The position numbers were made by a program, and so were the translations under genes. 64,000 nucleotides of DNA from a virus, in IMG/VR virus record IMGVR_UViG_3300020187_000015, positions 41,789 to 105,788 of that record; one strand, 5' to 3'. Shown here piece by piece: positions 4,291 to 42,838 of this stretch (positions within the stretch are counted from its first letter, which is position 1; every line of letters starts with the position of its first letter). Below the pieces are notes generated by a model that had not been told where the DNA came from, did not search any database, and saw nothing but the letters and a program-made list of their open reading frames with translations.

Positions 4291-4497
4291 TTATACTACA
4301 GCAAGACTCTTGATTGAGTTTCGATGGACTTTAATTTCTCCACGCTTTCCAGAGAAGCGATCAAAGATTACGAATGTTTCTCCGATAGATTTAACTTTAC
4401 CCATAAAGCATTCGGAAACTTTAGAATTTTGTAGACTTACTCTCATAAATTTACCGCGGGACTTTGTTACTTTTGATTTAATAGTACTTGTATTCAT
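4291..4497 (-). CDS. Small basic hypothetical protein (possible SH3/Sm-like fold)
   Basis: 68-aa ORF coupled to the upstream GT4 stop and followed by a terminator. Confidence 0.65.
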   Translation of the reverse strand: MNTSTIKSKVTKSRGKFMRVSLQNSKVSECFMGKVKSIGETFVIFDRFSGKRGEIKVHRNSIKSLAVV

Positions 4498-5609
4498 TAT
4501 ATTTTTATTAGTTCTAGTATTTCGTCACAGAATTTTGCATCTGTGAACTGAGATGGTAGCTTTTTGCCGCCTTCATTAATTTTCCCATCAAGGACATTTT
4601 TAACGGCAGAATCTAATGAAGTAGACATATTTTCTATATCTAAATCATAAATATTTCCGCAATTAAATGGAGACCCCTGTTGAAAGAAAAGATTATCGAT
4701 TGCTGAAATTTTACCATTAGGAGCCACTTTAATAGAATTACTATCAGTTGCCCACTCTTTAATTCCAGAATTAAAATTAACTACACATTGCTTGCCGAGT
4801 CCAGCCATATGGAAAGAAGGTAGAGACCAAGATTCTCCACCGCTTCCATCAACAACAATGTCTGCAATATTATATGCTTGATTCAACTCCGTTAACTTTC
4901 TAAAGTAGGGCATAAAGATCATGTTATGGGGAACATCTCCATCACAAGCCTCGACTACTTTCATTTTGTTTATCTCCATAGATTTATTCGGGTCTTGATG
5001 GAAAAAGGGATTGAATATATGAAGATGTATCTTGAATCTCTTATCATTCCCAAATTTATTTTTTAACAAATTAATGATACTAGCAGTATGCTTTCTTTTT
5101 TCAAATTTGCCAGCTAAAGCAATTACAATTTCATTATTTTCATACTTTTTAACTTCAGTCTCTTTAAAAGCAAGGGAGTTGTAACCCAAGTTAATTGTTT
5201 TGTGGTTATCAACTCCATATTCTTTGCAGACCTCTTCCGTGAAAGAACAAGGTGATGCAACTTTGTCATAGGAGTTCAAAATATTTTTTTCAGTCGCAGT
5301 AAGTTGATCTAGCTCATGGAAAAAATAAAGGAAGGGGTTTTTACTGATTGAATCTTGAGAGCCATTGATGTGCCAAATTCTCAAGGACGGTTCAGTTCTC
5401 TTGAAGTCTTTCAATGATTTTTGAGTACACAATTGCAACCAAGCCATGAACTGTTCAGGAATGATATCTTCATAAGAAGATAGATCTATTCCAGCTATTG
5501 GAAAAATATTAGGCTCCAGCTTTCTAGAGAATAGCTCATATAGAAGATTGGTAGATACTTGACCTAAGCTAGTGCCATTAATGGGGACCTGCAAACTAAA
5601 ATTACTCAT
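4497..5609 (-). CDS. Glycosyltransferase, GT-B fold (GT4-like)
   Basis: GKFEKRK and YNIADIVVDGSGGESWSLP motifs resemble the GT4 donor-binding domain. Confidence 0.8.
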   Translation of the reverse strand: MSNFSLQVPINGTSLGQVSTNLLYELFSRKLEPNIFPIAGIDLSSYEDIIPEQFMAWLQLCTQKSLKDFKRTEPSLRIWHINGSQDSISKNPFLYFFHELDQLTATEKNILNSYDKVASPCSFTEEVCKEYGVDNHKTINLGYNSLAFKETEVKKYENNEIVIALAGKFEKRKHTASIINLLKNKFGNDKRFKIHLHIFNPFFHQDPNKSMEINKMKVVEACDGDVPHNMIFMPYFRKLTELNQAYNIADIVVDGSGGESWSLPSFHMAGLGKQCVVNFNSGIKEWATDSNSIKVAPNGKISAIDNLFFQQGSPFNCGNIYDLDIENMSTSLDSAVKNVLDGKINEGGKKLPSQFTDAKFCDEILELIKI

Positions 5610-6126
5610 TATTTAAAATCTGTTTATATCTATCTAAAATTCTATTGTACTTTTGACGAATCCATTCGCCAGAATATTTGTTATTCATGTCTTTAGCTAT
5701 CTCTGAAAATGTCATTCCTGACAACCTTTTTTCTAAAATTTCTCTATTTTCTTTATTTTGAATATCATTTTCAACATAACTCAATAACTCCCTTTTACCG
5801 TAATTGGGCATGTGTACTAAGTGGTTATCCTCTATTTCTACGAAATACTTCTTTGAGCTGCAAAGGCTCTGACATGTCCAAAATGCTTTATTGCCTATCC
5901 AGGTTGAGAATTTGCTCCTACTAACATCAAATTCTTTTGCAGCATCATAAAAAAAACTTAAAGGATTTTCTTTTAAATCTTCAATCTCCATTATTCCAGA
6001 GTAAGCATTGGCCTTTTTATAAAAGATTCCGCTGTGCCGCTCTTGTAACTCTTTCAAACAGTTATTTACGTCAATACCATTTTTTATATTTTCAGTAAGC
6101 TCTAAATCAGATAAATCATCAATCAT
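5602..6126 (-). CDS. Phage sigma-70-family sigma factor (regions 2 and 4)
   Basis: Region 2-like AAKEFDVSRSKFSTWI; region 4 HTH GMTFSEIAKDM...EWIRQ; ATG 6126 preceded by AGGAGG. Confidence 0.75.
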   Translation of the reverse strand: MIDDLSDLELTENIKNGIDVNNCLKELQERHSGIFYKKANAYSGIMEIEDLKENPLSFFYDAAKEFDVSRSKFSTWIGNKAFWTCQSLCSSKKYFVEIEDNHLVHMPNYGKRELLSYVENDIQNKENREILEKRLSGMTFSEIAKDMNNKYSGEWIRQKYNRILDRYKQILNNE

Positions 6127-6133
6127 TCCTCCT

Positions 6134-6641: not shown

Positions 6642-7484
6642 ATGGAAGATTTTACAGATAAGATAACGATTGGGATTCTTGACTTTTTTCAAGAGAAAGA
6701 GTCAAAGGAACTGCTAATGTCCTTAGCTGAAAATCTTTTGATAGATGTTAACATTCTTTTTATCGACAACGGAACTCCAAAAAGTTATAGTAAACAGTTC
6801 CTGAATGATGGACTAATTGATGAGTTAATTATAAACGATAGTAATCTTGGCTGTGGCCCAGCTACCGTTCAAATGTATGATTATTGCAAAACTCCATATT
6901 TGATATACGTCCAAAGCGATCAAAGGCTAAATCAAAAGATTGACGCAGATTCAATGAATGGGATGATTAGAGCTTTGGACGAATACCACTGCATTGACTT
7001 GGCTGGAAATCAAGGGAATGGAAAATTCTCAGAAAGAGCTAATATGATGAAAACGGAATTCTATAAAAGAATTCCAAAACCTACTTTAGGTGGACCAGGA
7101 ATCACAAATGATCAAAAGTATGTAGAGGAATGGGTTCAAGATTTTTTTGCAGACAATAATTGCGTTATAGCTCATGTTAGGCCAACAGTATTTTCTGACG
7201 AAGGTTATTACTCAGTAAGAGAATTGTCACAAGAAGACCCTTGCATTTTAAAACATTCTTGCTGGACCAAGGAGATGTGGATTCTTACTGACCCCCCGAA
7301 GAATAGGCATGAGGTTTATCCACCTCTTAACGAAGAGGAGTGGGATAGATTGATAAAAGGAGATTTTCCTAGGTGGAAAAACAACGAAAGGGGCTATGTA
7401 CCAGAGGCTTGGAGAGACAACATTATTACCAATGAAATCGTGGAATCAAAAATTAGAGAAGACATAAAAAATGACACCGATTAA
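6642..7484 (+). CDS. GT2-like glycosyltransferase
   Basis: ILFIDNGT, SNLGCG and YLIYVQSD motifs typical of GT-A. Confidence 0.75.
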   Translation: MEDFTDKITIGILDFFQEKESKELLMSLAENLLIDVNILFIDNGTPKSYSKQFLNDGLIDELIINDSNLGCGPATVQMYDYCKTPYLIYVQSDQRLNQKIDADSMNGMIRALDEYHCIDLAGNQGNGKFSERANMMKTEFYKRIPKPTLGGPGITNDQKYVEEWVQDFFADNNCVIAHVRPTVFSDEGYYSVRELSQEDPCILKHSCWTKEMWILTDPPKNRHEVYPPLNEEEWDRLIKGDFPRWKNNERGYVPEAWRDNIITNEIVESKIREDIKNDTD

Positions 7485-8340
7485 AAATAAAATTTGGCTA
7501 TGCGGACTTACTTATGGCCCAGCTATTGAAGCCGTAAAAAATAACATTATCCCTATTGCTAAGCATTTCGATGGATTGAATATTGTTCTCCATAAGAGTG
7601 GACCAATCCTAACTGAACAGGAAAGCCAGTTATTTAGCATACTAAATGAAAATAGGGGACAAGGTAAAATTCATATTTTCGATTGGATTAGAAGATATGA
7701 TTTTTCTAGGAATAGATATTTGTTTGACCCATTAATGAATTCTGGAGACTTCTTTGTAGTTTTAGACTCGTTGGAAAATATGACAGAAAATTTCTGTACA
7801 ACAGATCTTCCGAAGATTAGAAAATCAATGGTAGACAATGACCTTGAGGGAGTCTTTCTTCATGGCAAGGGTTTTATTTTTAGAAAAAACGAATGGATGA
7901 AATATGAAAACGGAACTCATGAATGCATCAGACCCATGAATAGAGCTGCTGAGCTTACGCAGATTGCGGGCTATGAAGACAGTTCAAAATACTTCACAAA
8001 CACTAGGCCAAACAAGAGAGAAAAACTTCATTTTGTAGAACACTTTTTTAGATATTATCTAATCGATAACACTATGCAGTGCTATTTAGGCACTGAGAAA
8101 GATGAAGGACTTACTAGAATTAGGTTAGAGAATAGACATGATTTTAGAAATCATCTGTTAAGCAAAGGAGTTGAATTCAATTACGAATCAGTCCTTGAGT
8201 TCTTTGAGCAGGACATAGATCAAGATACTAAAGATCTTATCAATAAAGAAAAAATTCTTAATGACTTCTATAGAAATAAAATACTAGGTGAAGTAGACAT
8301 TTTAGATAATCACGATTACGAAAACATAAAGCCTATATGA
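7471..8340 (+). CDS. Putative GT-A glycosyltransferase
   Basis: DFSRNRY, FFVVLDSLE and YENGTHE resemble GT2-family motifs; cluster context. Confidence 0.6.
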   Translation: MTPIKNKIWLCGLTYGPAIEAVKNNIIPIAKHFDGLNIVLHKSGPILTEQESQLFSILNENRGQGKIHIFDWIRRYDFSRNRYLFDPLMNSGDFFVVLDSLENMTENFCTTDLPKIRKSMVDNDLEGVFLHGKGFIFRKNEWMKYENGTHECIRPMNRAAELTQIAGYEDSSKYFTNTRPNKREKLHFVEHFFRYYLIDNTMQCYLGTEKDEGLTRIRLENRHDFRNHLLSKGVEFNYESVLEFFEQDIDQDTKDLINKEKILNDFYRNKILGEVDILDNHDYENIKPI

Positions 8341-9119
8341 TATCTCTAGCAACTAGTGCATTTAACATAGAGTCTAATGACTTTGACATTCATTCTGCAA
8401 TTAAAAACTGGGAATTGTACGTAGATGAGATTGTTATAAGTACTATACCCTCTAGAGACAACTCTCTGCAAATCCTAAAGGAACTCGAAAGTTCTAAACC
8501 TATAAAGATAATTGAGGAAGATTTTTCACTGGAAGATCCTGAGTTTGATGGTAAGCTTAAAAATAGCTCGCATCAAAACTCTTCTAACGAAATTGTCGTT
8601 CAGTGTGATTTAGATGAAAGAATGGGCGGAAAGCCAGAAGCCTGGAAAAGCTTTGCAGAAACTCTTTTATCAAATGAGAGTGTAAAATCCTTGTTCATTC
8701 CAGTTATTGATCTTTATGGATCTTATTATGAATATTCCTCTATCAATAAAAAATGGTATATATGCAAGAAAGAGGGTACTAAGAGGGGAGTAGTCTCTTT
8801 TGCTAGAAAGCAAGATGGTAAAATTGATATAGAAAAATCAGATACTTGCGAACTTCTCGATGAAGATGATAATTTAGTTCCATATATTGACATATGCCAT
8901 CATTATCAAATAGATCCTCTAAGATATTGCCAGCTACATAATCCCTTCATTTGGCACTTAGGTTATATAGATATGGATAGAAGATCGAAAATTAATTCTT
9001 GGTGGAAACCCCATTGGGAAAACCGTAAAGGAGAAAGTATTGAAGAGGTTGGAATATCTAAAAAAGATTTAGAATCAAGAGAAACTTTTAAACATAATAT
9101 TGAAATAGATTTCTTATAA
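8337..9119 (+). CDS. GT2-like glycosyltransferase
   Basis: VDEIVI, SRDNSL, DxD motif QCDLDE, IWHLGY. Confidence 0.75.
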   Translation: MISLATSAFNIESNDFDIHSAIKNWELYVDEIVISTIPSRDNSLQILKELESSKPIKIIEEDFSLEDPEFDGKLKNSSHQNSSNEIVVQCDLDERMGGKPEAWKSFAETLLSNESVKSLFIPVIDLYGSYYEYSSINKKWYICKKEGTKRGVVSFARKQDGKIDIEKSDTCELLDEDDNLVPYIDICHHYQIDPLRYCQLHNPFIWHLGYIDMDRRSKINSWWKPHWENRKGESIEEVGISKKDLESRETFKHNIEIDFL

Positions 9120-9124
9120 GAATC

Positions 9125-9757
9125 ATGAATAAAAATAATAAAATAAAACAAATTCAAGAAGAGTATGATAAACTAGGGCTAAATTCTTGTTCCGTACCAG
9201 AAGAGGATGGCTGGATATTTGAATCTGCTATGAATATAACGGAATCAAATAATATTCTAGAAATTGGATTTTATAAGGGTGGTAGTGCATTTATTATGCT
9301 TTCTTTAGATGAAGGTGTGAATTTAACTTCAGTTGACCCTATAGATGGATTGGCTTCCGAAGCATATCAAGCTGCTGAACAAAAGCAGTATGATGAAAAA
9401 CTCAAAGCAACAGAAAAAGTTAAAGAAAAGTTTGATGATCGATTTACTTTCATTAGAAAGTATTCTCAAGATGTCAGACCAGATTTAGAAGGGCAGTCTT
9501 TTGATATGATATTTATTGACGGTGATCATTGGGAAAGTGGCATAAGAAATGACTTTCAATTAATGCTAGATTTGAAAATTCCATATGCTCTAGTAGATGA
9601 TTGGATACAGCCAAATAATTGCCACAAATCAGTTCCAACAGTATGGGCAGAAAGTTTTCAAGATAAATTGAAAATGAAAACAGTTTTTTTTAGACATGCT
9701 ATTTCTTGCAATGGTGGTCCGATACCAGTTGTATTGCTGGAAAACTTGACCCTTTAG
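9125..9757 (+). CDS. Class I SAM-dependent methyltransferase (Methyltransf_24-like)
   Basis: ILEIGFYKGGSA, VDP, FDMIFIDGDH, VDD. Confidence 0.85.
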   Translation: MNKNNKIKQIQEEYDKLGLNSCSVPEEDGWIFESAMNITESNNILEIGFYKGGSAFIMLSLDEGVNLTSVDPIDGLASEAYQAAEQKQYDEKLKATEKVKEKFDDRFTFIRKYSQDVRPDLEGQSFDMIFIDGDHWESGIRNDFQLMLDLKIPYALVDDWIQPNNCHKSVPTVWAESFQDKLKMKTVFFRHAISCNGGPIPVVLLENLTL

Positions 9758-9762
9758 AAAGC

Positions 9763-10518
9763 ATGAAGAACTTACCCATATCATTAACGTTGTATACAAC
9801 AACCAAAGGACATTTTGGCTACAAGGATTGTGCTAAAGATACAATTAATCATCTTTCTAAGATTGACGAAGGTTGTTTTTCTAACAAGTCTGCCCACATA
9901 AAGGTATGTGATAGCCAGGAAGGTGAAGACAAGTGCGAGGATTTAAAGTCTTTCTTTAAATCAAAAGGTTTTGATGTATTCACGACAAAGGGTAATTGGA
10001 ACAGAAAAAACAATAATCATGCAATAGAGTATTTCAAAGACATGGAAACTCTAATGAATGAAAATGTTGTTCACGATAATGAATTTATCCTATTCCACGA
10101 AGATGACTGGTTAATAAACACTGAAAAGCCTTTGATATATCTTTTGCAGGAGGGCATAAAATTGATGAAAGCAAATAAGGATATTCTTTGTGTAAGAGTT
10201 AATGCAGATATAAATACAGATGTTTCAAAAGCCACAAAAATCACAAATGAAATATACTTACAAAATTTTGATTATACTGAATATGGGCCAACAATAACAT
10301 TTCAGCCTACTCTAATGAGAACTAGAGATTGGTATGCAGCAGTAAGACAAATAAACCGAAATGATTTGAGATTCAAATCCCATTGCGAATTACTTAGCGG
10401 CATGTTTATGAAGGGGCTTTTTGCAACAGTGAGTACGCCATTTGCTTTCTTTGATCCTAATACGATTAATGCTACCCACATTGGCTCAGAAGAGTTTGCA
10501 AAGGAGAATACTAAATGA
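9763..10518 (+). CDS. Putative GT-A glycosyltransferase
   Basis: FILFHEDDW, TFQPTLMR and HIG motifs; start moved to the ATG at 9763. Confidence 0.65.
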   Translation: MKNLPISLTLYTTTKGHFGYKDCAKDTINHLSKIDEGCFSNKSAHIKVCDSQEGEDKCEDLKSFFKSKGFDVFTTKGNWNRKNNNHAIEYFKDMETLMNENVVHDNEFILFHEDDWLINTEKPLIYLLQEGIKLMKANKDILCVRVNADINTDVSKATKITNEIYLQNFDYTEYGPTITFQPTLMRTRDWYAAVRQINRNDLRFKSHCELLSGMFMKGLFATVSTPFAFFDPNTINATHIGSEEFAKENTK

Positions 10519-10568
10519 TTTACTTTGATGAAGGCAGATCAGATTATATTTTAGATTGGTGGCTATGA
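10515..10568 (+). CDS. 17-aa mini-ORF (MIYFDEGRSDYILDWWL) coupled to both neighbours
   Basis: ATGA overlaps with the upstream stop and with the downstream start; AAGGAG upstream. Confidence 0.45.
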   Translation: MIYFDEGRSDYILDWWL

Positions 10569-11320
10569 AAATAGGTTTTATGCTTTGTGCTTTCAATCAA
10601 GAAGAGTTTCTTGATGGCTGCTTACAGGACCTTGTTCCTTTTTGTAAGGAGTATGGTCATATTATTAGTGCTGTTTCAGTACCTTTTCTCGAATATAAAG
10701 ATAAAGGTATAAAGTACGATGGCACTACTAGTATTTTAAAAGGTAAGTTAAAAAATGGTGATATTGATTATTTGATTAGTGATCCCAAATACATAACAGA
10801 TGCTGAAGCGAGAAACTTCGCCCTGAAGCCTCTTCTCGAAAATGATTGCGACTTAATATTCTTGATTGATTCTGATGAAAAATTCAGCAAATTGGATTTA
10901 GAAAACATTATTAATTATGTAGAGAATTCTGAATTTATTGATTGGTGGGCTATAAGCTACAAAAATTACGTTGGTAATGGTTACTTGATAGAGCCTTTTA
11001 CTCCACCAAGAATATTCAAAGTAAACGCAAGGGGTTTAAAAGCCTCTCATTTTTATTTTGATAACGACTTACTTTACATCTCTAAAGATGGAAGTGAGTT
11101 GAATTACAAATCCCTGTCCAATAAAGTTATTCCACAGTCCATCGCATGGGTTCCACATTTTACTTGGACTAATACAGAAAGAAATAAGCTCAAAATAGAA
11201 TATCAAAACATTCATAATCATGGCTGCTCATACAAATGGGAAGATGGAGAGGTTAAGTTGAATGATGATTTTTATCATCGAAACAATCTTATCAAACCAA
11301 ATATAATCTATGAAGATTAG
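10565..11320 (+). CDS. GT2-like glycosyltransferase
   Basis: CAFNQEEFL, DGTT, EARNFAL, LIDSDE (DxD), PRIFK. Confidence 0.8.
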   Translation: MKIGFMLCAFNQEEFLDGCLQDLVPFCKEYGHIISAVSVPFLEYKDKGIKYDGTTSILKGKLKNGDIDYLISDPKYITDAEARNFALKPLLENDCDLIFLIDSDEKFSKLDLENIINYVENSEFIDWWAISYKNYVGNGYLIEPFTPPRIFKVNARGLKASHFYFDNDLLYISKDGSELNYKSLSNKVIPQSIAWVPHFTWTNTERNKLKIEYQNIHNHGCSYKWEDGEVKLNDDFYHRNNLIKPNIIYED

Positions 11321-11479
11321 ATATTTAAAATTTAAGTTAAAATTGTATTTGACAACTCCAATATTTTCATCATACATAAGGGCTGCAACAATTGCAGCAG
11401 TTGGATAAAATATCCAAAATAAAAAACACCACCAAATAAAAATGAAAGAAAAAAAAGAAATGCAAGTTAACGTTGATGG
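11294..11479 (+). repeat. Direct repeat copy 1 (~180 bp: GT 3' end, promoter, hairpins, first ~13 codons)
   Basis: Aligns with 12166-12351 at offset 872; 4 mismatches over 11294-11467. Confidence 0.95.
11349..11417 (+). promoter_or_regulatory. TTGACA promoter followed by two 7-3-7 inverted repeats
   Basis: TTGACA at 11349; GCTGCAA-CAA-TTGCAGC and TTGGATA-AAA-TATCCAA. Confidence 0.6.
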
Positions 11480-12161
11480 AGAAGTTATGGATGAATTAAA
11501 AAAAAATAGAGAGAGCTTATTAAAAAGTATGCATAGTAGTTTTTTTGGTTGTTTTACGCAACAAAGGCATGAAGCTTTTGCGGCAATTAATGATCTTTTA
11601 AATTATTATAATTTTACAAATATTATTGAAATCGGAACCCATGACTGTGGATTATCTATACCTCTTGCTCTTTATTGCTTGAATTCAAAAATTCCAGTTG
11701 AAGCAGAAAATCCCTCAGAGCCATCTACCCATAAAGCCAGAACTCATCATAAACAACCAAAACAATTTTACACTATGGATATAACTGTAAGAGATATTCA
11801 TTCTATAAAATTAATTATTGGGATGGGAGCAAAGTTTTTTAAAGAAGATTGCTTTTTAAAAGAAGCTGAAATTGGAAATTTAATCCAACAAAATGGACGA
11901 AGTCTGTTATTATGTGACGGAGGGGACAAACCAAAGGAAGTAAATACTTTTGCCAAATATCTTAAAAAGGGCGACATTATCATGGGTCACGATTATTTTC
12001 ATAGTGAAGAGGAGGAAGAAAAATATCTTAATAAAATTTGGTATGGCAAGGAATTATGTTATAAAGATGTAGAAAAAACTTTGGAGAAAGAAAATATTTC
12101 TGTAATTTACAGAGAAACTTTTGATCCAGTAGTTTGGATGTGCGCTATAAAAAACGAATAA
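11442..12161 (+). CDS. SAM-dependent methyltransferase (CmcI/Methyltransf_24-like)
   Basis: IIEIGTHDCG, LLCDGGDK, LKKGDIIMGHDY. Confidence 0.8.
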   Translation: MKEKKEMQVNVDGEVMDELKKNRESLLKSMHSSFFGCFTQQRHEAFAAINDLLNYYNFTNIIEIGTHDCGLSIPLALYCLNSKIPVEAENPSEPSTHKARTHHKQPKQFYTMDITVRDIHSIKLIIGMGAKFFKEDCFLKEAEIGNLIQQNGRSLLLCDGGDKPKEVNTFAKYLKKGDIIMGHDYFHSEEEEEKYLNKIWYGKELCYKDVEKTLEKENISVIYRETFDPVVWMCAIKNE

Positions 12162-15537: not shown

Positions 15538-15573
15538 TTGCTCAATTGCTCTAATCTCAATATCATCTTCCGT

Positions 15574-25640: not shown

Positions 25641-25675
25641 ATTGTTAAATTAAAGTTTAAATCTATAATTTGAAA

Positions 25676-33259: not shown

Positions 33260-33261
33260 AA

Positions 33262-36200
33262 TTATCCTATAAAAGTTAAAGATCCTGTGTTATCGTATGA
33301 TGCGTCTAAAGTACCGATGCCACTATATTTAATTATATTTAAATCTACAGAATCAGCAAAGTATTTTTTCTTTACCATTTGGATATTTAAGTCATCATCT
33401 CCAGTAAGAACAACATAACCCGAATAGCCAGTTAGATTAATAGAAGGTATATTAAAGAAGCCAGTGCATTTAGCAAATCCAGTATTGTTAATACCAGTAA
33501 GAATCTCATACTCTCCAGTAAAGGTCTTTATATAGTTTGGAATAGGGAAGCTATAACTCAAAGATTCTAAGTCAGCAGGATTAACAAAATCAGTATAAAA
33601 TCCAGTTCCAATAAAAGAGCTATTTAAGTTTCCAGTGAATGGAGTTATAGGAACATTTCCAGAAGATAGTAAAAATACCTCCTGTCCTGTTGGTACTACT
33701 GAATTTATAAACTGCGGCAGTCCAGTTTGAATTCCAGAGAAATTAAACTCTCCGCTTCCTGGGTATACTATTCCAGTAATGTTTCCAGATATTACTCCAA
33801 TTCCAATCTTGACTCCCGTTTTTTGTAAGTTTCTTTGAGTGAAGTTTAATATTCCAGTGTAATCAAACGATCCAGTTAATATCCCAGTTGCAAAGTTGAA
33901 TCCCTTTCTAACTCCCGAATATATAAAATTATCTGCATAAGAATCCTCAAACCCTCCTACTGGTTGGTCAAAGGTTATTGTCTGCAAATTCACTCCACTA
34001 AATGGAAGCATATTGAGAATGGCTTGGTCGAATTCGCCAGACTGCTGTCCAGCAAGGATCGTAATAGGGTCTATTCCAGTTCCACTTGCTATGGTTGGCA
34101 CATAGCCAGTGACTGTAGCATCTAGGTCTAGAATATTGCCACTGAAGTCTAAATTATCTATATACCATTTGGCAGGCCCAGTTTGGATTCCCGTATAACC
34201 TATAGCATATAAAGAACCAGTACTGTCATCCCCAGTAGCAAATGATATTCCAGTAGGAACGCCCGAAAATATATAGTTATCCGCATAAAGGTCATTATCC
34301 CCACCCAATGGGGGGCTATTGGATAATGCCCTTACTCCAGTTCCAGAAAAAGGAAACATATTTAAAAGGGTCTGGGCTAATTCGCCAGACTTCTCTCCAG
34401 CAAGTACCGTAATTTGGTCTATTCCAGTTCCAAGTCCAGTAGAGGGTATTATTCCGCTAGAAGCAAAGGGATCTATATAAATATCTCCTTCATTTAATGA
34501 ACTTATAAAGTATTTGGAAGTAGTATTTTCAATACCAGTAAAAGTTATAGAATAAATATTTCCACTAACTCCAGAATTGAAAGGAACGTATCCAGTAGCA
34601 AAGGTAGTTGGAATTGCAGTAGTTATTTTTCCAGACATTATACCTGAATATGGAAGATTTGATCCTTGGGTAGCAACCTCTATACCAGTTTCGATTAAAG
34701 TATAAAGTCCTCCACTTTGCCTGGTTGCATATTTTGCATCTTTACTCCAAGGACCATAAGCAGTACTTGTGGTAGTGCCAAGACCAAAACCTAATGCACC
34801 TCCGATTGGGTAAGTTAATCCAGGATCAGAAGTAAATCCAATTCTGCCACTTCCAAAATATACATTATACCCAATTTTATCACAATATGCTTTCATGATA
34901 CCGCTAATCTCTTCCATACTACTTTGATAATTAGATATTCCTAATCGCTCTATTAGTTCATAATTACCCAATGAATAACCGTCGATTTTTTCGTTGGTGG
35001 AGTCTACTCTTTTTCTTAAAAAGCCAACCACATTATTCATAAAAATTCCAGTAGGAATCTCAAAATTATTTATACTTTTCTCGCCATTAAAATTTCCAGT
35101 CATTTGAGTGAATATTTCGTTGGGTATGTTACTATTAGGAAAAAGACTTTCATCTTGAAGGGCATATAAAAATCCAGCATTTTCACCAGTTACTTCAATA
35201 GTACCGCCAACTCCAGACATTCCAGTACCCTCAAAGCTGACATTTTCAGCATATCCAGTCATATTAAACCCAGTTTGAAATACATTCAAGCCACTTGTAA
35301 CGCTAATGGTGTTTGGTAAAGCTATGGCGATCCTATTAGTTGTAGACCCAGTTGGATATTTGGTATCGGCAGATAGTAGATATCCACTAGCATCAGTCGG
35401 TGAAGAGTAATTTGTTAAAAATCTGCGAAATCCCTGCCCAGAGCTATCTAAGAACGTATTAAACTGGCGAGGGCCGAACTCAGGTGGATTCTTGCTGTTG
35501 TCGGTGTCCTGAAAATAGAAGTAATTAAACCCACTAGGTTCCAAATCTTCGGTGTCTGAAGTTATTAGAAAGTAGACATTAAACACACCATATTGGTCTG
35601 CGTTTATATTTCTATCGTTAAATCTCTCATTGAAATCAGTAGTTGAATTAACGCTTATGGTTTCTCTCTCTTTATAGATCATATCTGCAAGGTTATTCCC
35701 AGTATAAACAGTAATTCTGTAGCTTCTACTTTTTCGGCTTTTGTAAACTCCAGTTCCAGATAAAAAGTACTTAGGACTTACGCCAACTGTCATGTCTGAC
35801 GGATCGAGATCGAAAAAACCACTCAGCAATCTTCTATTGAGCCATACTGGGTTATGAATATATGAACCCCTGTCTGCATCGTTAGTAGAAAATGATAATA
35901 TAGGGGCCTTTTCGTTGGTGTGATCAGAATATAGAAGTATTCCACTGTTGCCACTAAAAATAAAGGGATTAAATCTTGTATAAACGCTGGAAACGGGGAT
36001 TCCGTAGGAATTTCCATTCAAAGAAATGCTATCGTCAATAAGCGCTCCAGTGTTTGTTAGATACCGACCAGTTACCCCACTTTCCCCATTGAAAATTATA
36101 TCTTTTACTGGTTCAGAAATTGAGCCTATGAGGCCAAGTCCAGTATATCCTATACCAGTAATTTCTTGAGGATGCACATATGCGCCAGTTCCTGAATAAT

Positions 36201-38499
36201 GAAACTGACCAGTAAAATCAACATATCCAGAAGAAATGTCTTGTGCTTGAACAGTAAAATTCTTGCTGAAAGTGTTGCCCAATCGAATAGATCTGAACAA
36301 ATAATCATAATTTCCTAGCATTGACAAATCAGTAGCAACATATCTGTCGTCCGTAACTTCATGAACAGTTTCATTAGTCATTCCACTCAAAAGTTTACCT
36401 TTTGCAATGTAATTATAAGTAAAATCTATTCCAGTAAATCCACTTGCTAATGCAGAAGCTTGCCCAGTAATTATTCCGCTACCCGTCAAAACTCCAGTAG
36501 TAAATTTAGATTCGATTCCAGTTATTCCAGTTCCACTAAATATAAATCCAGTTAAATTTGGATCTTCTGGCAATAACCCAGTTGCTAGTCCAGTAAGCTC
36601 TGTACTAACATACAAACTGTAATCGGGTATTGGAAACTTCATATCAATTCTATTGATTCCAGTAACATTAAAAGCCCCAGTTCCAGTCCCTATGAATGCC
36701 CCTGGAGTTCCAGAAACCTTAAATCCGCTAATAATATTCGTTCCAATTAAACCAATTTGGTCGGCAGGAATTCTCATTTCTCCATCAAAAATTCCACTAG
36801 AAAACCCGCTAAATATATTAGAATAATAAACATTAGAAGTTTGATTAGATCCAGCGCCAGTTACTCCAGTACCAAATGAGAGCAATCCAGTAAGATTTGG
36901 ATCTTCTGGCAATAAGCCAGTTGCTAGTCCAGTTAAAATTCTGTCAGATAGATCTATCGTCCAGCCATTATTAACAAAACCTCCTTGGGAATCTCTAGTG
37001 TCCATCGGAAAGGTTCCAATGAGGTCAAAAACCCCAGTTCCAGTCCCTATGAATGCCCCTGGAGTTCCAGAAACCTTAGATCCACTAATGGTAGTGGTTA
37101 TATCTAAGCCAGCCTGATCTCCTGGGTAATACGCAATCCCATCAAATGCGCCAGTTGCAAATCCGCTAAATCTACTGGCATATTCCTTATTTCTTGTTTG
37201 ATTTGATGTAGCGGTAAACGACTGAACGTCGAAGGAAAAGCAAAGAGAGTCATTTTTCGATGTTACTATCGGTTCTCCGTCAGTATTATTTCCACTAAGT
37301 ATTATTCCAGTCGTAAAGCTTGGAAATAGAGACTGTTGACCAGTAAATCTAATAGCGCCAGTTTCAGTGAAGTTATATCCTCCACTAACATTCCTTATGA
37401 ATCCAACATCTAATCCAGTTACAATCCCACTAGAGGACGTTAAAAATGGATACGACATTTCTCCAGTAGCAAATACTGTTTCTCCAGTATAAATCTGAGA
37501 TGGTATATTTCCAGTATAATTAATTTCAAGACCAGTGCTATAGCCAGAGAGTGTTAAATACCCGCCGCCCAAGCTGGACTCAATCATTCCAGTTAAATTG
37601 CCAGTGCCTATTATATTTCTAGAAATATCAAATCCTGGAATTGACCCAGTTATTTTACCAGTTTTAATATCATAGTCAGCGTAACCACCATAGCCACTAA
37701 TATTACCAAATGTAAAATGAAGTCCGAATGGATCATCTGTAAGATTTGGACCGTATCTTTCAGAAAATAAAACATTATAATTAAATATTCCAGTAGAATC
37801 CAAAAAGTCTGACCCCAATAAACTCAACAGGTACTCGTATTCCCTCGTAAAACTAATTAAGCCGCTTTTTGTAAAAGTTCCAAAGTCTGAAACAAAAGAT
37901 ATTGGTATCAGTACTCCAGTTCCAGTAGTGACATTTGAAATTTGATTAATTAAAAAGTCTCTACTAGATTGACCCTCTATTATTCCAGTATTTTGTCCAG
38001 TATTGAAATTGAAAAAGTTAGATAATTCTTCAAATTTTCCAGAAAATATATTAAATGATATTCCCTCACTAGAATTATTGCTAACCTTTAAACTTCCAGT
38101 TAAATTACTATTTTCGAATATTCCACTAATACTAATTACTGGCTCTACTCCCATTAAACTAAGTTCCGAAACTACTCCATTTTCAGTAAAGTTATTTATG
38201 TAGCCAGTGCCATTTTCATGGTAAGAATTTATAAGTACATTATTAACGAAATAATTATTATAATTCCCAATTTTATTCCCAGAAACGGAGAAAGTATCTT
38301 GATTCTTGTAAGAGTAGAAAAAGTTATTATCAGAATCATAAAGCTTTCCGCTTTCGCCACTAAAAACAATCCTATCTTCAATAGAGCCATCTCCAGTATT
38401 TATAAATGAAAACCCAAATGAAATATGATCGTCCCTTTGAGGCCGTATAAAGGCTTGATAAGAAAAGTTTCCTGACTGGGTTCCAATTGAGAATGACAT
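33262..38499 (-). CDS. Very large Thr-Gly/Ser-Gly-rich tail fibre or appendage protein
   Basis: 1745 aa, beta-rich, dense TG/SG dipeptides, internal ~110-120-aa duplications; tail region. Confidence 0.7.
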   Translation of the reverse strand: MSFSIGTQSGNFSYQAFIRPQRDDHISFGFSFINTGDGSIEDRIVFSGESGKLYDSDNNFFYSYKNQDTFSVSGNKIGNYNNYFVNNVLINSYHENGTGYINNFTENGVVSELSLMGVEPVISISGIFENSNLTGSLKVSNNSSEGISFNIFSGKFEELSNFFNFNTGQNTGIIEGQSSRDFLINQISNVTTGTGVLIPISFVSDFGTFTKSGLISFTREYEYLLSLLGSDFLDSTGIFNYNVLFSERYGPNLTDDPFGLHFTFGNISGYGGYADYDIKTGKITGSIPGFDISRNIIGTGNLTGMIESSLGGGYLTLSGYSTGLEINYTGNIPSQIYTGETVFATGEMSYPFLTSSSGIVTGLDVGFIRNVSGGYNFTETGAIRFTGQQSLFPSFTTGIILSGNNTDGEPIVTSKNDSLCFSFDVQSFTATSNQTRNKEYASRFSGFATGAFDGIAYYPGDQAGLDITTTISGSKVSGTPGAFIGTGTGVFDLIGTFPMDTRDSQGGFVNNGWTIDLSDRILTGLATGLLPEDPNLTGLLSFGTGVTGAGSNQTSNVYYSNIFSGFSSGIFDGEMRIPADQIGLIGTNIISGFKVSGTPGAFIGTGTGAFNVTGINRIDMKFPIPDYSLYVSTELTGLATGLLPEDPNLTGFIFSGTGITGIESKFTTGVLTGSGIITGQASALASGFTGIDFTYNYIAKGKLLSGMTNETVHEVTDDRYVATDLSMLGNYDYLFRSIRLGNTFSKNFTVQAQDISSGYVDFTGQFHYSGTGAYVHPQEITGIGYTGLGLIGSISEPVKDIIFNGESGVTGRYLTNTGALIDDSISLNGNSYGIPVSSVYTRFNPFIFSGNSGILLYSDHTNEKAPILSFSTNDADRGSYIHNPVWLNRRLLSGFFDLDPSDMTVGVSPKYFLSGTGVYKSRKSRSYRITVYTGNNLADMIYKERETISVNSTTDFNERFNDRNINADQYGVFNVYFLITSDTEDLEPSGFNYFYFQDTDNSKNPPEFGPRQFNTFLDSSGQGFRRFLTNYSSPTDASGYLLSADTKYPTGSTTNRIAIALPNTISVTSGLNVFQTGFNMTGYAENVSFEGTGMSGVGGTIEVTGENAGFLYALQDESLFPNSNIPNEIFTQMTGNFNGEKSINNFEIPTGIFMNNVVGFLRKRVDSTNEKIDGYSLGNYELIERLGISNYQSSMEEISGIMKAYCDKIGYNVYFGSGRIGFTSDPGLTYPIGGALGFGLGTTTSTAYGPWSKDAKYATRQSGGLYTLIETGIEVATQGSNLPYSGIMSGKITTAIPTTFATGYVPFNSGVSGNIYSITFTGIENTTSKYFISSLNEGDIYIDPFASSGIIPSTGLGTGIDQITVLAGEKSGELAQTLLNMFPFSGTGVRALSNSPPLGGDNDLYADNYIFSGVPTGISFATGDDSTGSLYAIGYTGIQTGPAKWYIDNLDFSGNILDLDATVTGYVPTIASGTGIDPITILAGQQSGEFDQAILNMLPFSGVNLQTITFDQPVGGFEDSYADNFIYSGVRKGFNFATGILTGSFDYTGILNFTQRNLQKTGVKIGIGVISGNITGIVYPGSGEFNFSGIQTGLPQFINSVVPTGQEVFLLSSGNVPITPFTGNLNSSFIGTGFYTDFVNPADLESLSYSFPIPNYIKTFTGEYEILTGINNTGFAKCTGFFNIPSINLTGYSGYVVLTGDDDLNIQMVKKKYFADSVDLNIIKYSGIGTLDASYDNTGSLTFIG

Positions 38500-38505: not shown

Positions 38506-40692
38506 TTATTTTTTGATGAATTTTAAAAGCTTTTCCCGATTCGAAGGTAGCACCTCTATATTTCGGGTATTTAAAGAACTTTTTACTGAATACACATTCT
38601 TCTTTGGAGGTAATGAATTTGGATTGCCGACAATAACTGCACCCCTTGGCTGAGTTATTAATTCTTTACTAGGTAAAGTAAAGTTTCTATTGCCAATCGT
38701 ATAAGTAGTTTTTACGCCATTACTACTAATACTTATATCTACGTTTTGCAGCCCCTTTTCTATAGAAGCGGTATAATTTGGTATATCTATATTATTAATT
38801 GTAAAAGTTTTTTGGACTTTTTTCTGCGTTATAGTATATCCCAAGTTTGGGTAATTAGTTAATGATCCTCCTATTCTAGGACTATTACCAAGCCTTATAT
38901 TATTACCGTCTACTTGAATTATATCCGATAAGGCCGCTACTTGATTTGGTGATGTATCCAAATCGACGTCAGTCCTAATTGTATTAGAATTATAACTTGG
39001 CTGAGTAAAAGCTATTGACTCTAAAGCAGCTGTAAAATTCTCTTCTCCTCCTTGATCTCCTCCTCCTCCTCCATCATCAATGCTGCCCCTTATATCGATT
39101 CTTTGACCCTCCACTCTCAGAGTCTGCTTTAACTCGTATTTAAAGTTTATTCTTTCAAATATATTAGTGAAGTTTATATTCTTAAGAACTGCTGCAAACT
39201 TCAAATTTGGATTATATCCGTCACTTCTAGCCTTGTATCTAGCGGAACTACTTACTTCTAAAAATATTACAGACTTATTTAAATTTAATGATTTAACACT
39301 ATCATAAACGTCGAAAGACAAATCCCACGGAATGGTTGCATATATTCTATGATTACTTTCAGCTGCACTCTTCCTATCTGGATTGACATATTCAGTTATA
39401 TCCTCTCTGTCATACTTTAAATCCGCACCAATAGCCCAATTGTATCTAAAATATTGGGCTTCAGCTAGATTATTCTCGTAGGTCAAGAATTGCGCAAATT
39501 TTTGCTTTACAGTTTCCACTGTGACTGTATCGGAAATATCTGACTCAATATATGAGATTATGTTATAATCCTCATATAAATCATCCTTTGGATCAAAAGC
39601 CTTTTTTTGCTTAGGGTTCAAAGTATAGACCTGTTCATATCCAAATACACTTGAATATGAATTTGGATCTTTCTTGCACAAGTACAAAGCAGCGTAAGCA
39701 AAAAAAGACTCTCCTACCGCAGCAGCTTTGCCTAGATTTATAGCAAATCCTGGATTAGCCCAATACTGATCTGGCCTGTCAGTAGGCCTATAAAGATATA
39801 TCTGTGTATCTGATTTCTCTTCAAATTCTCCATACTTAGTTTCTCCGCCTCCACCAGTGCTTGTTGTATTTCCGCCTCCTCCACCAGCATCTATATTTTT
39901 ACCAGGCTTTCCGTAATAAACGGAGTGACCTTTTGATATAGTATCTCTCAATGAGAATGAGTTTTTTTCAGATATGAAGTTAACTTCGTTAGGGAAAACT
40001 GGAGAAATACTTTCAGTAAGATCTATAAACTGTATCTTACCAGACTCATTAAAAAAAAAGGTAAATCCATATATTGAACCCCAAGAACTTAATACGTTTC
40101 TTAAAGTACCAGTAGTTTCCTTCAATAGGCTATTATCGTGTCTGGCTAAAGCAACATCTATATTTTCAATTTTCCCTCGAATTTTTCCCAACAGCTCCTC
40201 AAGGTTATATAAATAATCTGGGAGCTGCCTGACATCCTGAGAGGAGGTTGATCTAGTTAGTGGAATCGAATCTCCACCTAATTCCGACGATTCTTCTAAT
40301 GTAAAGTATCCTCTGCCAACTAGTATTAAAGACTCGTCCGTTGCTGTTGCGTTAAAATTTCTCCCCAATAAAGCAACAAACTTTTTGTCTAAAAGAAGAA
40401 TCGACTTGTCGTTATAAGTGACGGTCAAAATTCTTCCACTAACACTATCGTCTATGGAGTACTCTATCGCAACCATATTTAGTTCTCTTGATCCTAGATT
40501 TATCTTATCACTATCAAAAACATTCAAACTATCTTCGCTTATAGTGTAAGCTCCATTCTCGCTCGAAATAGTTAATGTTAACTGCGTGACTTGCGTCCCA
40601 AAGCCAATAGAATAAGATGCACTAATTATTAGTCCACCGTACGCTGAAGTACTCCCATTCAAAGTAACCTTATCTGTTTTTCTTATCGCCAT
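38506..40692 (-). CDS. Putative tail tip/baseplate hub protein
   Basis: Position; TGTLRNVLSSWGSIYGFTFFF...IQFIDL resembles hub domains. Confidence 0.5.
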   Translation of the reverse strand: MAIRKTDKVTLNGSTSAYGGLIISASYSIGFGTQVTQLTLTISSENGAYTISEDSLNVFDSDKINLGSRELNMVAIEYSIDDSVSGRILTVTYNDKSILLLDKKFVALLGRNFNATATDESLILVGRGYFTLEESSELGGDSIPLTRSTSSQDVRQLPDYLYNLEELLGKIRGKIENIDVALARHDNSLLKETTGTLRNVLSSWGSIYGFTFFFNESGKIQFIDLTESISPVFPNEVNFISEKNSFSLRDTISKGHSVYYGKPGKNIDAGGGGGNTTSTGGGGETKYGEFEEKSDTQIYLYRPTDRPDQYWANPGFAINLGKAAAVGESFFAYAALYLCKKDPNSYSSVFGYEQVYTLNPKQKKAFDPKDDLYEDYNIISYIESDISDTVTVETVKQKFAQFLTYENNLAEAQYFRYNWAIGADLKYDREDITEYVNPDRKSAAESNHRIYATIPWDLSFDVYDSVKSLNLNKSVIFLEVSSSARYKARSDGYNPNLKFAAVLKNINFTNIFERINFKYELKQTLRVEGQRIDIRGSIDDGGGGGDQGGEENFTAALESIAFTQPSYNSNTIRTDVDLDTSPNQVAALSDIIQVDGNNIRLGNSPRIGGSLTNYPNLGYTITQKKVQKTFTINNIDIPNYTASIEKGLQNVDISISSNGVKTTYTIGNRNFTLPSKELITQPRGAVIVGNPNSLPPKKNVYSVKSSLNTRNIEVLPSNREKLLKFIKK

Positions 40693-40741
40693 TCCTTTAT
40701 TTTATTACACTTAATTATAGTCCATTTTAAACTTAATCAAA

Positions 40742-42838
40742 CTAAAGATCGAAAAAGCCACTGGCTCCAGTTAGATAAGATCTATATACTGATCCAGTTG
40801 ATAGCTCGCTCTGATAATTTCTATTAACAAATAGAGATTTTACTCCGCTTGGAATAAGCTGCTTTTTATTAGATATTAGATCTGAAGATTCACTAGTCTC
40901 TAAATATAGATCACGGCGCAGCCTCAGCCTTCCAAAATAATTGGTAGAGGAGCCTCTAAAGAATTTCCCCGAAGATGGTATGATATTAGACTGGTGTTGA
41001 CCACTCTGAACTCTAAAGCCAATAGCTAAAATTTCTTTAGTTGAGTCAGATGTTTTTATTGCGGTGAACGAGTTGTTAATTGCGTCTCCAGTATAATCCA
41101 ATCCAGACGCTAACTTATACCCTTTTTTGAAAAACAAGTTATCGTGTACGCTTATATTGTTGTTGCCACTAAAGACACTTTTTACTGCAAAGTCATTAGC
41201 ATCGTAAAATACTTTTGAGTCAGTATTATTACCGCTTAATATTACCTTACCTGGTTCTATTGAACCAGATTTATAAAAATTTTCTAGACCAGCTGATGTT
41301 ATGGTAGAGTTTGAAAATCTCAAAAGACCATTAGAAAAGACTCTAAATTCGGACCCATCATACTCTTGATTAATTGAAAATCCAGTCCCATCTAAGCTTG
41401 CAAGAGATGTCTTGTTTAAGAAATTGAAATTTCTAAATTCATTAGAATAATCGTCTTCTTTTTCATATAAAGCTAAAGAGTTAAAGCTATTTATTCCAGT
41501 CTCTTCTTGACCAAACGATTGATCAAAATACTCGCCAAGATAAATAGTTTCACTCATTCCATACTCAGAAAGCTGTCTTCTGTCGCCACTCATAATATTC
41601 TTAAGTCCAGAAATGTCATTGTTGCCAGTATTGAAAATAGTAGTAGCTCTTAACCCACTAGACAAGAACCCAGTGATGTTAACGTTTTGATATATATCCG
41701 TTCCATTGATAACTTCATCGGTTCCAGAGAATTGACGAATCAACCCAATTACGCCAGTTGAATCTAATGTAACAACCTTTCTATATATTGGAACTTCTTC
41801 GTTTCCTATGCAATACTGCGGTAAGTTTTGTAAGAACTCTATCTTTTCCTCTCCAGGTGCTATAACTCCCGTTTCAACAACATATTGATAAATGTCAGAG
41901 TAACCAGTAGTATATCCAGTGCCAGTCAAAATGCTGTTTGTAGAAAGTATGCCAGTTACTCCAGTTAAATTATATTCATAGCCACTAACTCCTCCAGTAA
42001 TTCCAGACTCTATCAAGAAAGGAATCCCACTCTTGGTGTCCGACCAAAAGCCCGAAGCCAGTATGTTTGCATCTACAGTTGAAATGTTTTGATTTAAGTA
42101 TACAAAATCGTCCATAAAGCCAGAATAGCTTTTTTGATTTTGCCCACTACCAATTAAAAATTTATTACAAGGAAGAATTTGGTCGGATATAACGCTTTTT
42201 ATTTCACTCTCAAAAGATTTCGTACTATTATTATAAGCTAAAAAGTAAATTGAGTCATCGAATTTTCTTAATCCTATTAAGTTTTTATCTGATAGCTGCA
42301 ACAAGCTAGTTTGTATATCGTATCTTTGGTTTTGATTATCAAAATATTCAAAATACATTTTATTTGCAGAATTTATCCCAAAAGAATATCCACTTTTTAT
42401 AACGTTGTCGTCAAAACAAGAAAATAAAACTCCATCTCCAGTATAACGCTTATCTTGAGATAAGAGTACGGTAAAATCTCTAGAGAATAAATCTTTTTGA
42501 TTATTTATTTCTAAATATCCGTAATTAAAATTTCCAGAATTTCCATTTCCAGTAAAGCTATCAACGTTTCCTATTATAGAAGCAGAGTTTGAGCTTAAAA
42601 TATTTATATCTTGCCCAATAAAAAAAGAAGCAAAGTTTACAGAATTGTATCCTGAAACATCGACGTCCTCTAATATTATAAAAGAAGAGTCTTGCGTAAT
42701 TAAGGGGCTTCCTGACTGTGTGACTAGCTGAGTATAAAATTCATCACTAAAATTATTAAAGTCATAGTATACTGGCATGTTGCCTGTATCTAGTTTTAAT
42801 ATTCCAGAATAAATGTAGTTTATGCCCCTTAAGCCCAT
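40742..42838 (-). CDS. TG/SG-rich tail protein with LamG/ConA-like domain
   Basis: FTVLL...GYSFGIN...FLIGSG...YSGFMDDF pattern; TG/SG-rich. Confidence 0.65.
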   Translation of the reverse strand: MGLRGINYIYSGILKLDTGNMPVYYDFNNFSDEFYTQLVTQSGSPLITQDSSFIILEDVDVSGYNSVNFASFFIGQDINILSSNSASIIGNVDSFTGNGNSGNFNYGYLEINNQKDLFSRDFTVLLSQDKRYTGDGVLFSCFDDNVIKSGYSFGINSANKMYFEYFDNQNQRYDIQTSLLQLSDKNLIGLRKFDDSIYFLAYNNSTKSFESEIKSVISDQILPCNKFLIGSGQNQKSYSGFMDDFVYLNQNISTVDANILASGFWSDTKSGIPFLIESGITGGVSGYEYNLTGVTGILSTNSILTGTGYTTGYSDIYQYVVETGVIAPGEEKIEFLQNLPQYCIGNEEVPIYRKVVTLDSTGVIGLIRQFSGTDEVINGTDIYQNVNITGFLSSGLRATTIFNTGNNDISGLKNIMSGDRRQLSEYGMSETIYLGEYFDQSFGQEETGINSFNSLALYEKEDDYSNEFRNFNFLNKTSLASLDGTGFSINQEYDGSEFRVFSNGLLRFSNSTITSAGLENFYKSGSIEPGKVILSGNNTDSKVFYDANDFAVKSVFSGNNNISVHDNLFFKKGYKLASGLDYTGDAINNSFTAIKTSDSTKEILAIGFRVQSGQHQSNIIPSSGKFFRGSSTNYFGRLRLRRDLYLETSESSDLISNKKQLIPSGVKSLFVNRNYQSELSTGSVYRSYLTGASGFFDL

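Follow-up and report, generated by a model that had tools for sequence, protein, structure and literature searches.

The 64,000 nucleotides analyzed here (the window) form the end of a 105.8-kb contig, IMG/VR virus record IMGVR_UViG_3300020187_000015 (positions 41,789 to 105,788 of that record; G000 below). It carries two features with which this work is concerned: a pair of adjacent glycosyltransferase (GT) genes on the plus strand, the second of which encodes a relative of the GT9 heptosyltransferases, and large fibre genes on the minus strand, two of whose products are strongly enriched in threonine or serine followed by glycine ([TS]G). The head-and-tail module is on the minus strand, between about 63.9 and 30.2 kb, and includes the genes for the capsid (57937-59076) and for a tape measure of 1922 residues (48045..53813; PF10145, 1.5e-18), after which the large baseplate and fibre genes run on. 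The plus strand between 6.6 and 30.2 kb is devoted to replication and nucleotide metabolism (ribonucleotide reductase, RecA-like protein, DnaB, primase, and a PD-(D/E)XK nuclease), with sugar genes interspersed. The source contig is 62% complete according to CheckV, and the phage is uncultured and probably marine, with a genome of about 170 kb and a long, probably non-contractile tail; the sources of its homologues, which include Tara Oceans, point to the marine origin.

No match to the capsid, the fibre, or the GT9-like protein was found by tblastn in 50,697 GenBank phages. A conserved head protein of 669 residues has at least 577 relatives in IMG/VR, and the phage therefore belongs to a large uncultured clade. 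We compared nine whole contigs and further 20-kb loci of this clade, with capsid identities from 98% down to about 34%. A scan seeded with protein P0130 yielded one further useful relative, a 25-kb contig (L102), and scans of viral and metagenome contigs seeded with P0013 and P0022 for loci of distant homologues of the [TS]G-rich fibres yielded nothing.

The second gene of the pair (27595..28761, plus strand) encodes a GT9-type heptosyltransferase-like enzyme of 388 residues, which matches PF01075 at 1.1e-10 (41.7 bits, the cut-off being 22) and, as a family profile, WaaF at 1.3e-9. In an AlphaFold2 (AF2) model of this enzyme (predicted local distance difference test score, pLDDT, 91), residues 1-184 have the fold of the heptosyltransferase donor-binding domain. 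The fold Z scores for this domain are tied among WaaC (17.9; root-mean-square deviation 2.8, 153 residues aligned), a Veillonella GT9 enzyme (16.9), WaaF (16.8), and TibC (16.6; 174 residues aligned), and a clear gap separates them from other GT-B enzymes, which reach at most 11.7. All these matches pair residues 1-184 of the model with the part of the target chain from about residue 135 to its end. Thus the canonical GT-B order, an N-terminal acceptor domain and then the donor domain, is not observed: here the donor domain precedes a separate alpha/beta domain of about 200 residues (185-388), for which no relatives were detected in searches that barely covered it. The model opens with a helix and a Rossmann domain and has no visible barrel, the C-terminal domain not having been searched alone. 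The architecture could be that of a permuted or half-replaced GT-B enzyme. The donor-site motif NDS-x-x-x-H ... YGP(T/S) is conserved, and from sequence and model the enzyme likely uses ADP-heptose; the model also suggests that the usual lipid A-Kdo is probably not its acceptor. Its 62 homologues are all full-length (371-417 residues) and all come from metagenomes or phage contigs. An alignment of 40 of these sequences contains no cysteine that is invariant or 90% conserved; hence the enzyme lacks the iron finger of TibC, formed by the conserved cysteines C339, C342, C358, and C370 (PMC4358343), and does not belong to the bacterial autotransporter heptosyltransferase (BAHT) family. TibC was likewise not recovered in sequence or profile searches with the GT9-like enzyme. 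Here we describe a phage-only GT9 family in which the acceptor domain is replaced and which is core to a very large clade.

The gene directly upstream (25670..27595, plus strand) encodes a 641-residue GT-B enzyme of the GT1/GT4-like type with a DUF4214 region (PF00534, 5.2e-6, 26.5 bits with a cut-off of 26.4; PF13946, 2.5e-3) and a weak match in the PDB to B736L of chlorovirus PBCV-1 (0.015). Together the Pfam matches support the GT4/GT9 pair that an earlier note on this DNA had placed at 25676-28761. In every relative examined, a homologue of the GT-B enzyme (28-74% identity) immediately precedes the GT9-like gene. The pair as a whole is found at 28-98% identity in G001, G002, G005-G010, L047-L061, and L102, as well as in all four additional clade contigs of at least 74 kb; the GT9-like gene is missing only from clade fragments that are 36-40% complete. 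In nearly all relatives examined the pair lies beside giant fibre genes or converges on them.

Genes for primase, nuclease, exonuclease, and Pol III alpha precede the pair in G007, G008, and L055, a context that would suit glycosylation of the phage DNA by the two core GT-B enzymes. DNA-glycosylating phage GT-B enzymes are well known (Pyle et al. 2024, cited in PMC12619734), and there is a weak Foldseek match to a glycosyltransferase of phage HY126 (E 1.2e-4). However, a PF00303-type hydroxymethylase is absent from G000, G001, G006, G007, and G009, five clade genomes of which two are complete, in a search whose PF00303 control was found in 10 of 14 reference genomes; this lack of a thymidylate-synthase-type hydroxymethylase argues against glycosylation of DNA. 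The donor domain is also specific to heptosyltransferases (Z 16-18 versus 11.7 or less for other GT-B enzymes), and we know of no system in which ADP-heptose serves as a donor for DNA. We regard DNA hypermodification by the pair as very improbable.

The composition of the fibre proteins was assessed by comparing [TS]G counts with those in 500 composition-preserving shuffles of each protein. The tail-fibre-like protein of 1745 residues (33262..38499, minus strand) contains 141 [TS]G dipeptides where 47.8 are expected (z 15.9), and the baseplate/fibre protein of 698 residues (40742..42838, minus strand) contains 41 where 12.9 are expected (z 9.3). A third fibre/baseplate protein, of 728 residues (38506..40692, minus strand), provides an internal control with 4 dipeptides against 9.6 expected (z -2.0); its orthologue in L102 (7787-9997) is likewise depleted (z -2.1), and the contrast with the neighbouring proteins is conserved. 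The fibre protein at 30576-32903 is depleted as well (z -1.7), and the tape measure shows no enrichment (z 0.8). The abundance of Thr-Gly and Ser-Gly that the earlier note had ascribed to the tail proteins in general is thus confirmed for the two proteins at 33262-38499 and 40742-42838 but for none of the other tail proteins it named: the tube, terminator, and 46426 proteins, said to carry many such pairs, have z scores of 1.6, 2.4, and 1.6, which are not significant. The strong clustering of the dipeptide in the large fibre holds, although the richest 140-residue stretch contains 19 copies and not the 17 counted in about 140 residues; the counts of 4 in the capsid and 8 in DnaB were exact. 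As a side observation, the terminator-type protein (278 residues, 55180-56016) and its orthologues in G001, G002, G007, G008, and G009 have z scores of 2.4-4.6 across six genomes, with scores of about 0 in G006 and G010, a mild excess that is too weak to call alone.

Every clade genome examined encodes at least one protein with z above 4 (range 4-12), and these proteins fall into the same orthologous families; orthologues of the 40742-42838 protein, in particular, score 5-10 in L102, G001, G002, G007, G008, and G009. Across this phage and two relatives, 47% of the glycines in the enriched proteins are preceded by threonine or serine (observed/expected ratio 2.3-2.8), and all other X-Gly pairs are depleted, N-G (0.54) and D-G (0.89) among them. 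The motif can be described as hydrophobic-[T/S]-G-hydrophobic and occurs 5-8 times per 100 residues in two fibre-protein families; in the 1745-residue fibre, 84 sites are Thr-Gly and 57 are Ser-Gly. N-x-S/T is not enriched, which sets aside an N-glycosylation sequon, and the irregular spacing of the sites sets aside a collagen-like or fixed-period repeat; a single self-BLAST run of the large fibre, whose output was left unchecked, printed no repeat. The long tail fibres of T4 have z scores of 0-0.8 and the fibre proteins of Pelagibacter phage HTVC008M at most 2.8, so the bias is not a general property of fibres.

A HMMER search of 1.84 billion representatives with the first 1200 residues of the large fibre returned 34 homologue clusters, nearly all of them [TS]G-enriched. 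In three closer pairs of large-fibre orthologues (32-44% overall identity), a hydroxyl residue is kept at 87-90% of the positions preceding glycine and the glycine itself at 88-92%, compared with 39-49% for other threonines and serines, 57-63% for other glycines, and 32-44% for the rest of the protein. A biased alignment might raise such figures; the corresponding control values are 40% and 44% for non-homologous [TS]G-rich proteins and 62% and 61% for a block-shuffled orthologue. Since the real values lie well above both controls, the [TS]G dipeptide is under stronger constraint than any other element of these fibres. The effect is much weaker in a more distant pair with about 24% identity (49% and 65% versus 36% and 61%), and distant pairs of the 40742-42838 protein, also at about 24% identity, share 27-48% of their [TS]G sites. 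In the AF2 model, residues 1-118 of the large fibre form a galectin/ConA-like jelly roll (Z 13 to galectins), and of the 15 [TS]G sites within residues 1-230, nine are in loops and six within beta-strands. PDB sequence searches with the 1745- and 698-residue proteins returned no match, and a search of the ESM Atlas with the fibre returned no usable one. These proteins define a new fibre fold, characterized by conserved Thr/Ser-Gly pairs and without a relative in the PDB.

One explanation of such a pattern is purely structural: [TS]G would form unmodified tight turns or beta-bulges in a trimeric, intertwined fibre fold so far missing from the PDB, which is compatible with either a fibre or a host substrate for the enzymes. 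The position conservation of both residues at low overall identity agrees with this, as do the invariant Ser-Gly pairs, which in the N-terminal jelly roll fall within predicted strands, the flanking hydrophobic residues typical of strand-turn-strand elements, the occurrence of threonine before glycine as commonly as serine, and the enrichment of the same orthologous families in every genome next to fibre proteins that are depleted. The turns of the adenovirus fibre beta-spiral, too, are often [T/S/A]-G. A generic turn element accounts less well for the depletion of N-G and D-G, the usual beta-turn formers, from which we conclude that a hydroxyl residue is specifically preferred; nor does it account for the absence of a fixed period, of a PDB sequence relative, and of any bias in the fibres of T4 and HTVC008M. 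On balance, we consider it probable that [TS]G is at least primarily a structural turn or bulge, and rank this role as more likely than that of a sequon; its use as an acceptor sequon appears rather unlikely.

The window also encodes enzymes of sugar-nucleotide synthesis. The GDP-mannose 4,6-dehydratase Gmd (15538..16602, plus strand) is matched by TIGR01472 (1.5e-101) and PF16363 (8e-105); it is kept at 41-64% identity in G001 and G006-G009 and is absent from the fragments G002 and G010. An HldA-like heptose-7-phosphate kinase (23664..24461, plus strand; TIGR02198, 3.5e-43, 148 bits, with the next kinase family at 49 bits) is followed by an HldC-like heptose-1-phosphate adenylyltransferase (24427..24858, plus strand; TIGR02199, 1.5e-25, 89.8 bits). 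Gmd, as reported in the earlier note, is therefore borne out, and both halves of HldE are represented by HldA-like and HldC-like proteins. A third gene of the pathway, for an HldD-like ADP-glyceromanno-heptose 6-epimerase (G000 27669-28445, equivalent to L042:7669-8445, minus strand; TIGR02197, 1.5e-43, 149 bits), lies 13.3-14.1 kb upstream of the window and adjoins exonuclease and Pol III alpha genes. For the HldA-, HldC-, and HldD-like proteins these are by far the best family matches, yet they fall under the NCBIfam equivalog cut-offs (345, 181.5, and 274.6 bits). GmhA (TIGR00441) and GmhB (TIGR00213) had no match in G000, G001, and G005, records that are 58-77% complete; their genes may reside in unsequenced parts of the genome or their products may be supplied by the host. 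By these putative assignments the phage encodes three of the five steps to ADP-L,D-heptose. HldA, HldC, and HldD are confined to one subclade, with HldA in G000, G001, G005, and L102 only and the HldD-like gene kept in G001 and not in G006-G010. A protein of 214 residues encoded between these genes and the GT pair (24936..25580, plus strand) has no Pfam or NCBIfam match; among the genomes compared, its homologues were found by jackhmmer in G001 and G002 only, and by tblastn in G005 and L102.

Further GT candidates are located near the left end of the window. A GT-B-like candidate (4497..5609, minus strand; PHROG 2170 'glycosyltransferase', 2e-10; no Pfam match) is clade-wide, with 33-57% identity in G001, G002, G006-G010, and related loci among L047-L061, and in the relatives examined it is always accompanied by a homologue of its small neighbour at 2772-3152. 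Beside this gene, here and in most relatives examined, is that of a sigma-70/ECF-like protein (5602-6183; TIGR02937, 3e-4; PHROG sigma factor), which may be the clade's own late sigma factor. The island that follows, on the plus strand, includes a GT2-like glycosyltransferase (8337..9119; its ESM Atlas neighbours are GT2 clusters with a score of 0.98 and 207/256 features) with a 52% homologue in G001, an S-adenosylmethionine-dependent O-methyltransferase-like protein (9125..9757; PF13578, 1.2e-14; PF01596, 2.9e-8), and a GT2-like (GT-A) glycosyltransferase (10556..11320). The last of these has an invariant D105-x-D107-E108, a DxD(E) motif, and its family profile matches PDB 5tze/5tz8 at 1.2e-4; the entries are deposited as 'Glycosyl transferase', and we take them to be TarS. 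A possible GT-A/GT2 enzyme at 6642..7484 has a sub-threshold PF00535 match only (E = 0.13) and is present in G005 and not in G001 or other relatives. The proteins at 7471..8340 and 9706..10518, claimed as GT-A enzymes, have no match in Pfam, PHROGs, or NCBIfam, and the claimed second methyltransferase (11442..12161) has no hidden Markov model match and is absent from G005 and G001. Consequently, of the roughly eight GT genes originally proposed, about five are supported and one (6642-7484) is weak; of the five GT-A-like genes at 6642-11320, those at 8337 and 10556 stand, that at 6642 is weak, and those at 7471 and 9706 are unsupported, as is the second of the two methyltransferases. Jackhmmer shows no similarity among the five, so they are not detectable paralogues. 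The island has just two genes in common with a relative of 63% capsid identity, and G005, a 97%-identical genome, lacks both methyltransferase-type cassettes (9125-9757 and 11442-12161). The gene content of the island changes between near-identical genomes.

Hld proteins and Gmd are classic precursor enzymes of lipopolysaccharide (LPS) and O-antigen, and the turnover of the GT-A island resembles that of O-antigen clusters. The heptose, Gmd, and GT genes could accordingly be auxiliary LPS or capsule genes that alter the surface glycans of the infected cell, for superinfection exclusion or to keep progeny from adsorbing to debris, and [TS]G would then be an unrelated fold signature. The donor domain of the GT9-like enzyme is closest to WaaC and WaaF; this reading is also favoured by the [TS]G sites, which keep their positions and in part lie within strands. 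In marine phages, GT and rfaE genes beside fibre genes have been read as modifiers of the host O-chain (PMC7029224). However, no polytopic membrane protein of the flippase, polymerase, or ligase type, or of any other, was found among open reading frames of at least 60 residues in the 105.8-kb contig. The GT pair is core across deep divergence, unlike a patchy accessory gene, and the canonical acceptor domain is lost from the GT9-like enzyme. Moreover, the clade looks lytic; no integrase was noticed among the genes scanned, without a systematic search for one. Remodelling of the host envelope is, in our opinion, less likely than not, yet only a little less likely than glycosylation of the fibres.

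All GT candidates are soluble. We favour a phage protein as the acceptor because the GT pair is core, lies beside fibre genes, and includes an enzyme with a replaced acceptor domain, and because no flippase, polymerase, or ligase was found in the 105.8-kb contig and no hydroxymethylase in five clade genomes. This preference also draws on the specificity of the [TS]G bias, which is missing from the fibres of T4 and HTVC008M, on the conservation of the hydroxyl residue at these sites, and on two precedents, the heptosylation of serine by TibC (PMC4358343) and the virion glycosylation reported for mycobacteriophages. Glycosylation of fibre or other virion proteins in the cytoplasm is, then, the reading we tentatively put first, though short of calling it probable; whatever likelihood is left by the fibre, host-envelope, and DNA explanations belongs to some other function. 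In the proposed mechanism, soluble enzymes would act in the cytoplasm on newly made fibre or baseplate proteins, and the GT9-like enzyme would add the first heptose from ADP-heptose, made by the phage in this subclade and by the host in the others. The glycan would be extended and capped by the partner GT-B enzyme and by the variable GT2 and methyltransferase genes. The [TS]G pairs would serve primarily as turns or bulges within the fibre fold, and some exposed pairs might also be acceptor sites, like the strand-loop-strand acceptors of AIDA-I/TibA; this is the weakest step.

A number of observations weigh against glycosylation of the fibres. The case for it is built from genes, synteny, and composition, and most of the acceptors known for GT9 enzymes are LPS cores. 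The Hld genes are confined to one subclade, whereas [TS]G-rich fibres and the GT9-like gene are found across the clade, which is at odds with a simple sequon. The giant fibre adjoining the GT pair shows no [TS]G enrichment (z about 0) in G006, in G010, and at several loci. The co-occurrence comparison proposed in the earlier note is uninformative, since every large clade contig examined has the pair and the data points are all related by descent. The operon membership of the pair is ambiguous as well: it follows Pol III alpha and exonuclease genes in several relatives and could belong to a replication operon. With regard to the sites themselves, a role in determining the fold would explain their conservation no less well than modification would, and the strict positional conservation, together with the invariant pairs S73-G74 and S153-G154, which sit mid-strand in the AF2 model, points to a structural role. 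That model has a pLDDT of 45.6 over fibre residues 1-760, of which residues 1-230 are usable and the shaft scores about 30. Finally, the GT9-like enzyme has no counterpart of the conserved iron-finger cysteines of TibC, and Thr-Gly outnumbers Ser-Gly in the large fibre, whereas TibC-type enzymes modify serine and not threonine (PMC4358343).

A more specific form of the fibre glycosylation proposal is that the half-GT9 heptosyltransferase recognizes hydrophobic-[T/S]-G-hydrophobic elements of the strand-turn-strand type, that the clade, large and spread over the world's oceans, O-glycosylates its own receptor-binding fibres in the cytoplasm of the host, and that the GT2/methyltransferase island diversifies the outer sugars. 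The acceptor logic would, by analogy, be AIDA-I/TibA-like, independently evolved, and accepting of threonine. We consider this unlikely as a whole; if true, a protein glycosylation sequon would for the first time be defined in a phage that infects Gram-negative bacteria, and a virion would for the first time be known to carry heptose. Should the fibres bear glycans at all, 'LPS-like auxiliary genes' beside marine phage fibres would have to be re-read as virion-maturation genes, and models of host range, adsorption, and particle stability of abundant ocean viruses would change. The conserved [TS]G sites and the compact GT9-like enzyme provide a concrete candidate enzyme-substrate pair for in vitro work. 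Even without fibre glycosylation, the phage-only GT9 family and the [TS]G-defined fibre fold stand as findings.

Several neighbouring genes deserve mention. A conserved protein that is always encoded downstream of the GT pair (29133..29834, plus strand) has no family match; a AENRAFVRAVRNF-type motif is conserved in 12 homologues, and its C-terminus is acidic and contains tryptophan. There is no support for a sugar enzyme here, and the motif and the acidic C-terminus suggest another role; judging from these features, the protein may bind DNA or another protein. The next open reading frame (29838-30179, 113 residues) has two predicted transmembrane segments and could encode a holin. Upstream of the window, a protein of 1253 residues (G000 30224-33985, equivalent to L042:10224-13985, minus strand) has a C-terminal subtilase S8 domain and faint matches of the beta-propeller type, with no homologue among the relatives compared. 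The tape measure homologues in G008 (81774-92348), G009 (66189-75194), and G007 (120177-127883) have 2568-3524 residues, compared with 1922 in this phage; taken at face value, these sizes would correspond to tails of roughly 0.3-0.5 micrometres in the clade.

Among known systems, WaaC and WaaF (CAZy GT9, PF01075) are the best sequence, profile, and fold matches of the GT9-like enzyme and have the same donor-site motif. Only their C-terminal donor half matches, however; the N-terminal domain that binds lipid A-Kdo is absent here, and the GT9-like family has been met in phage or metagenome contigs only. With the BAHT enzymes TibC and Aah, which act on AIDA-I/TibA, the enzyme would have in common its solubility, its cytoplasmic location, and a GT9-type ADP-heptose donor domain, and its gene, too, adjoins that of a large beta-rich adhesin-like protein. 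A flattened N-terminal beta-barrel and a beta-hairpin thumb are BAHT features, whereas the N-terminal part of our model has no barrel; the four-cysteine iron finger is missing, the donor domain comes first, and Thr-Gly predominates in the fibres. The serine of N-S-G-G is one mapped acceptor of TibC, which modifies serine only (PMC4358343).

The marine myophages, both pelagimyophages and cyanomyophages, have GT and rfaE/hld genes interleaved with tail-fibre genes or beside them, as observed here, and in the host-recognition clusters of pelagimyophages these genes were read as modifiers of the host O-chain (PMC7029224). They represent another lineage, in contrast to the long tape measure and Pol III alpha replication of this clade, and another GT family, and the fibres of HTVC008M have no [TS]G bias. 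The chloroviruses and mimiviruses also resemble this phage in combining a virus-encoded Gmd with a set of soluble GTs and methyltransferases. The genes of PBCV-1 include those for Gmd/GMER and for GTs like A064R and B736L, and the glycosylation of chlorovirus and mimivirus capsids or fibrils is self-encoded. These are, however, giant viruses of eukaryotes with other acceptor proteins and sequons, and the similarity to B736L may reflect the shared GT-B fold only.

Virion glycosylation by phage GTs has been reported for mycobacteriophages (Freeman et al. 2023, Cell Host Microbe, cited in PMC12619734). As in that system, the present phage encodes GTs together with a methyltransferase, and decoration of structural proteins in the cytoplasm is proposed. 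The mycobacteriophage GTs are reportedly accompanied by methyltransferases, and the glycans were reportedly located by experiment on the C-termini of capsid and tail-tube subunits. In our case the capsid and tube are unbiased, the candidates are fibre proteins, and the host is probably Gram-negative and marine. Overall, virion glycosylation by phage GTs and the presence of GT and rfaE genes beside the fibres of marine myophages are already known; the phage-only GT9 family and the fibre fold built on Thr/Ser-Gly pairs are what this clade adds to them.

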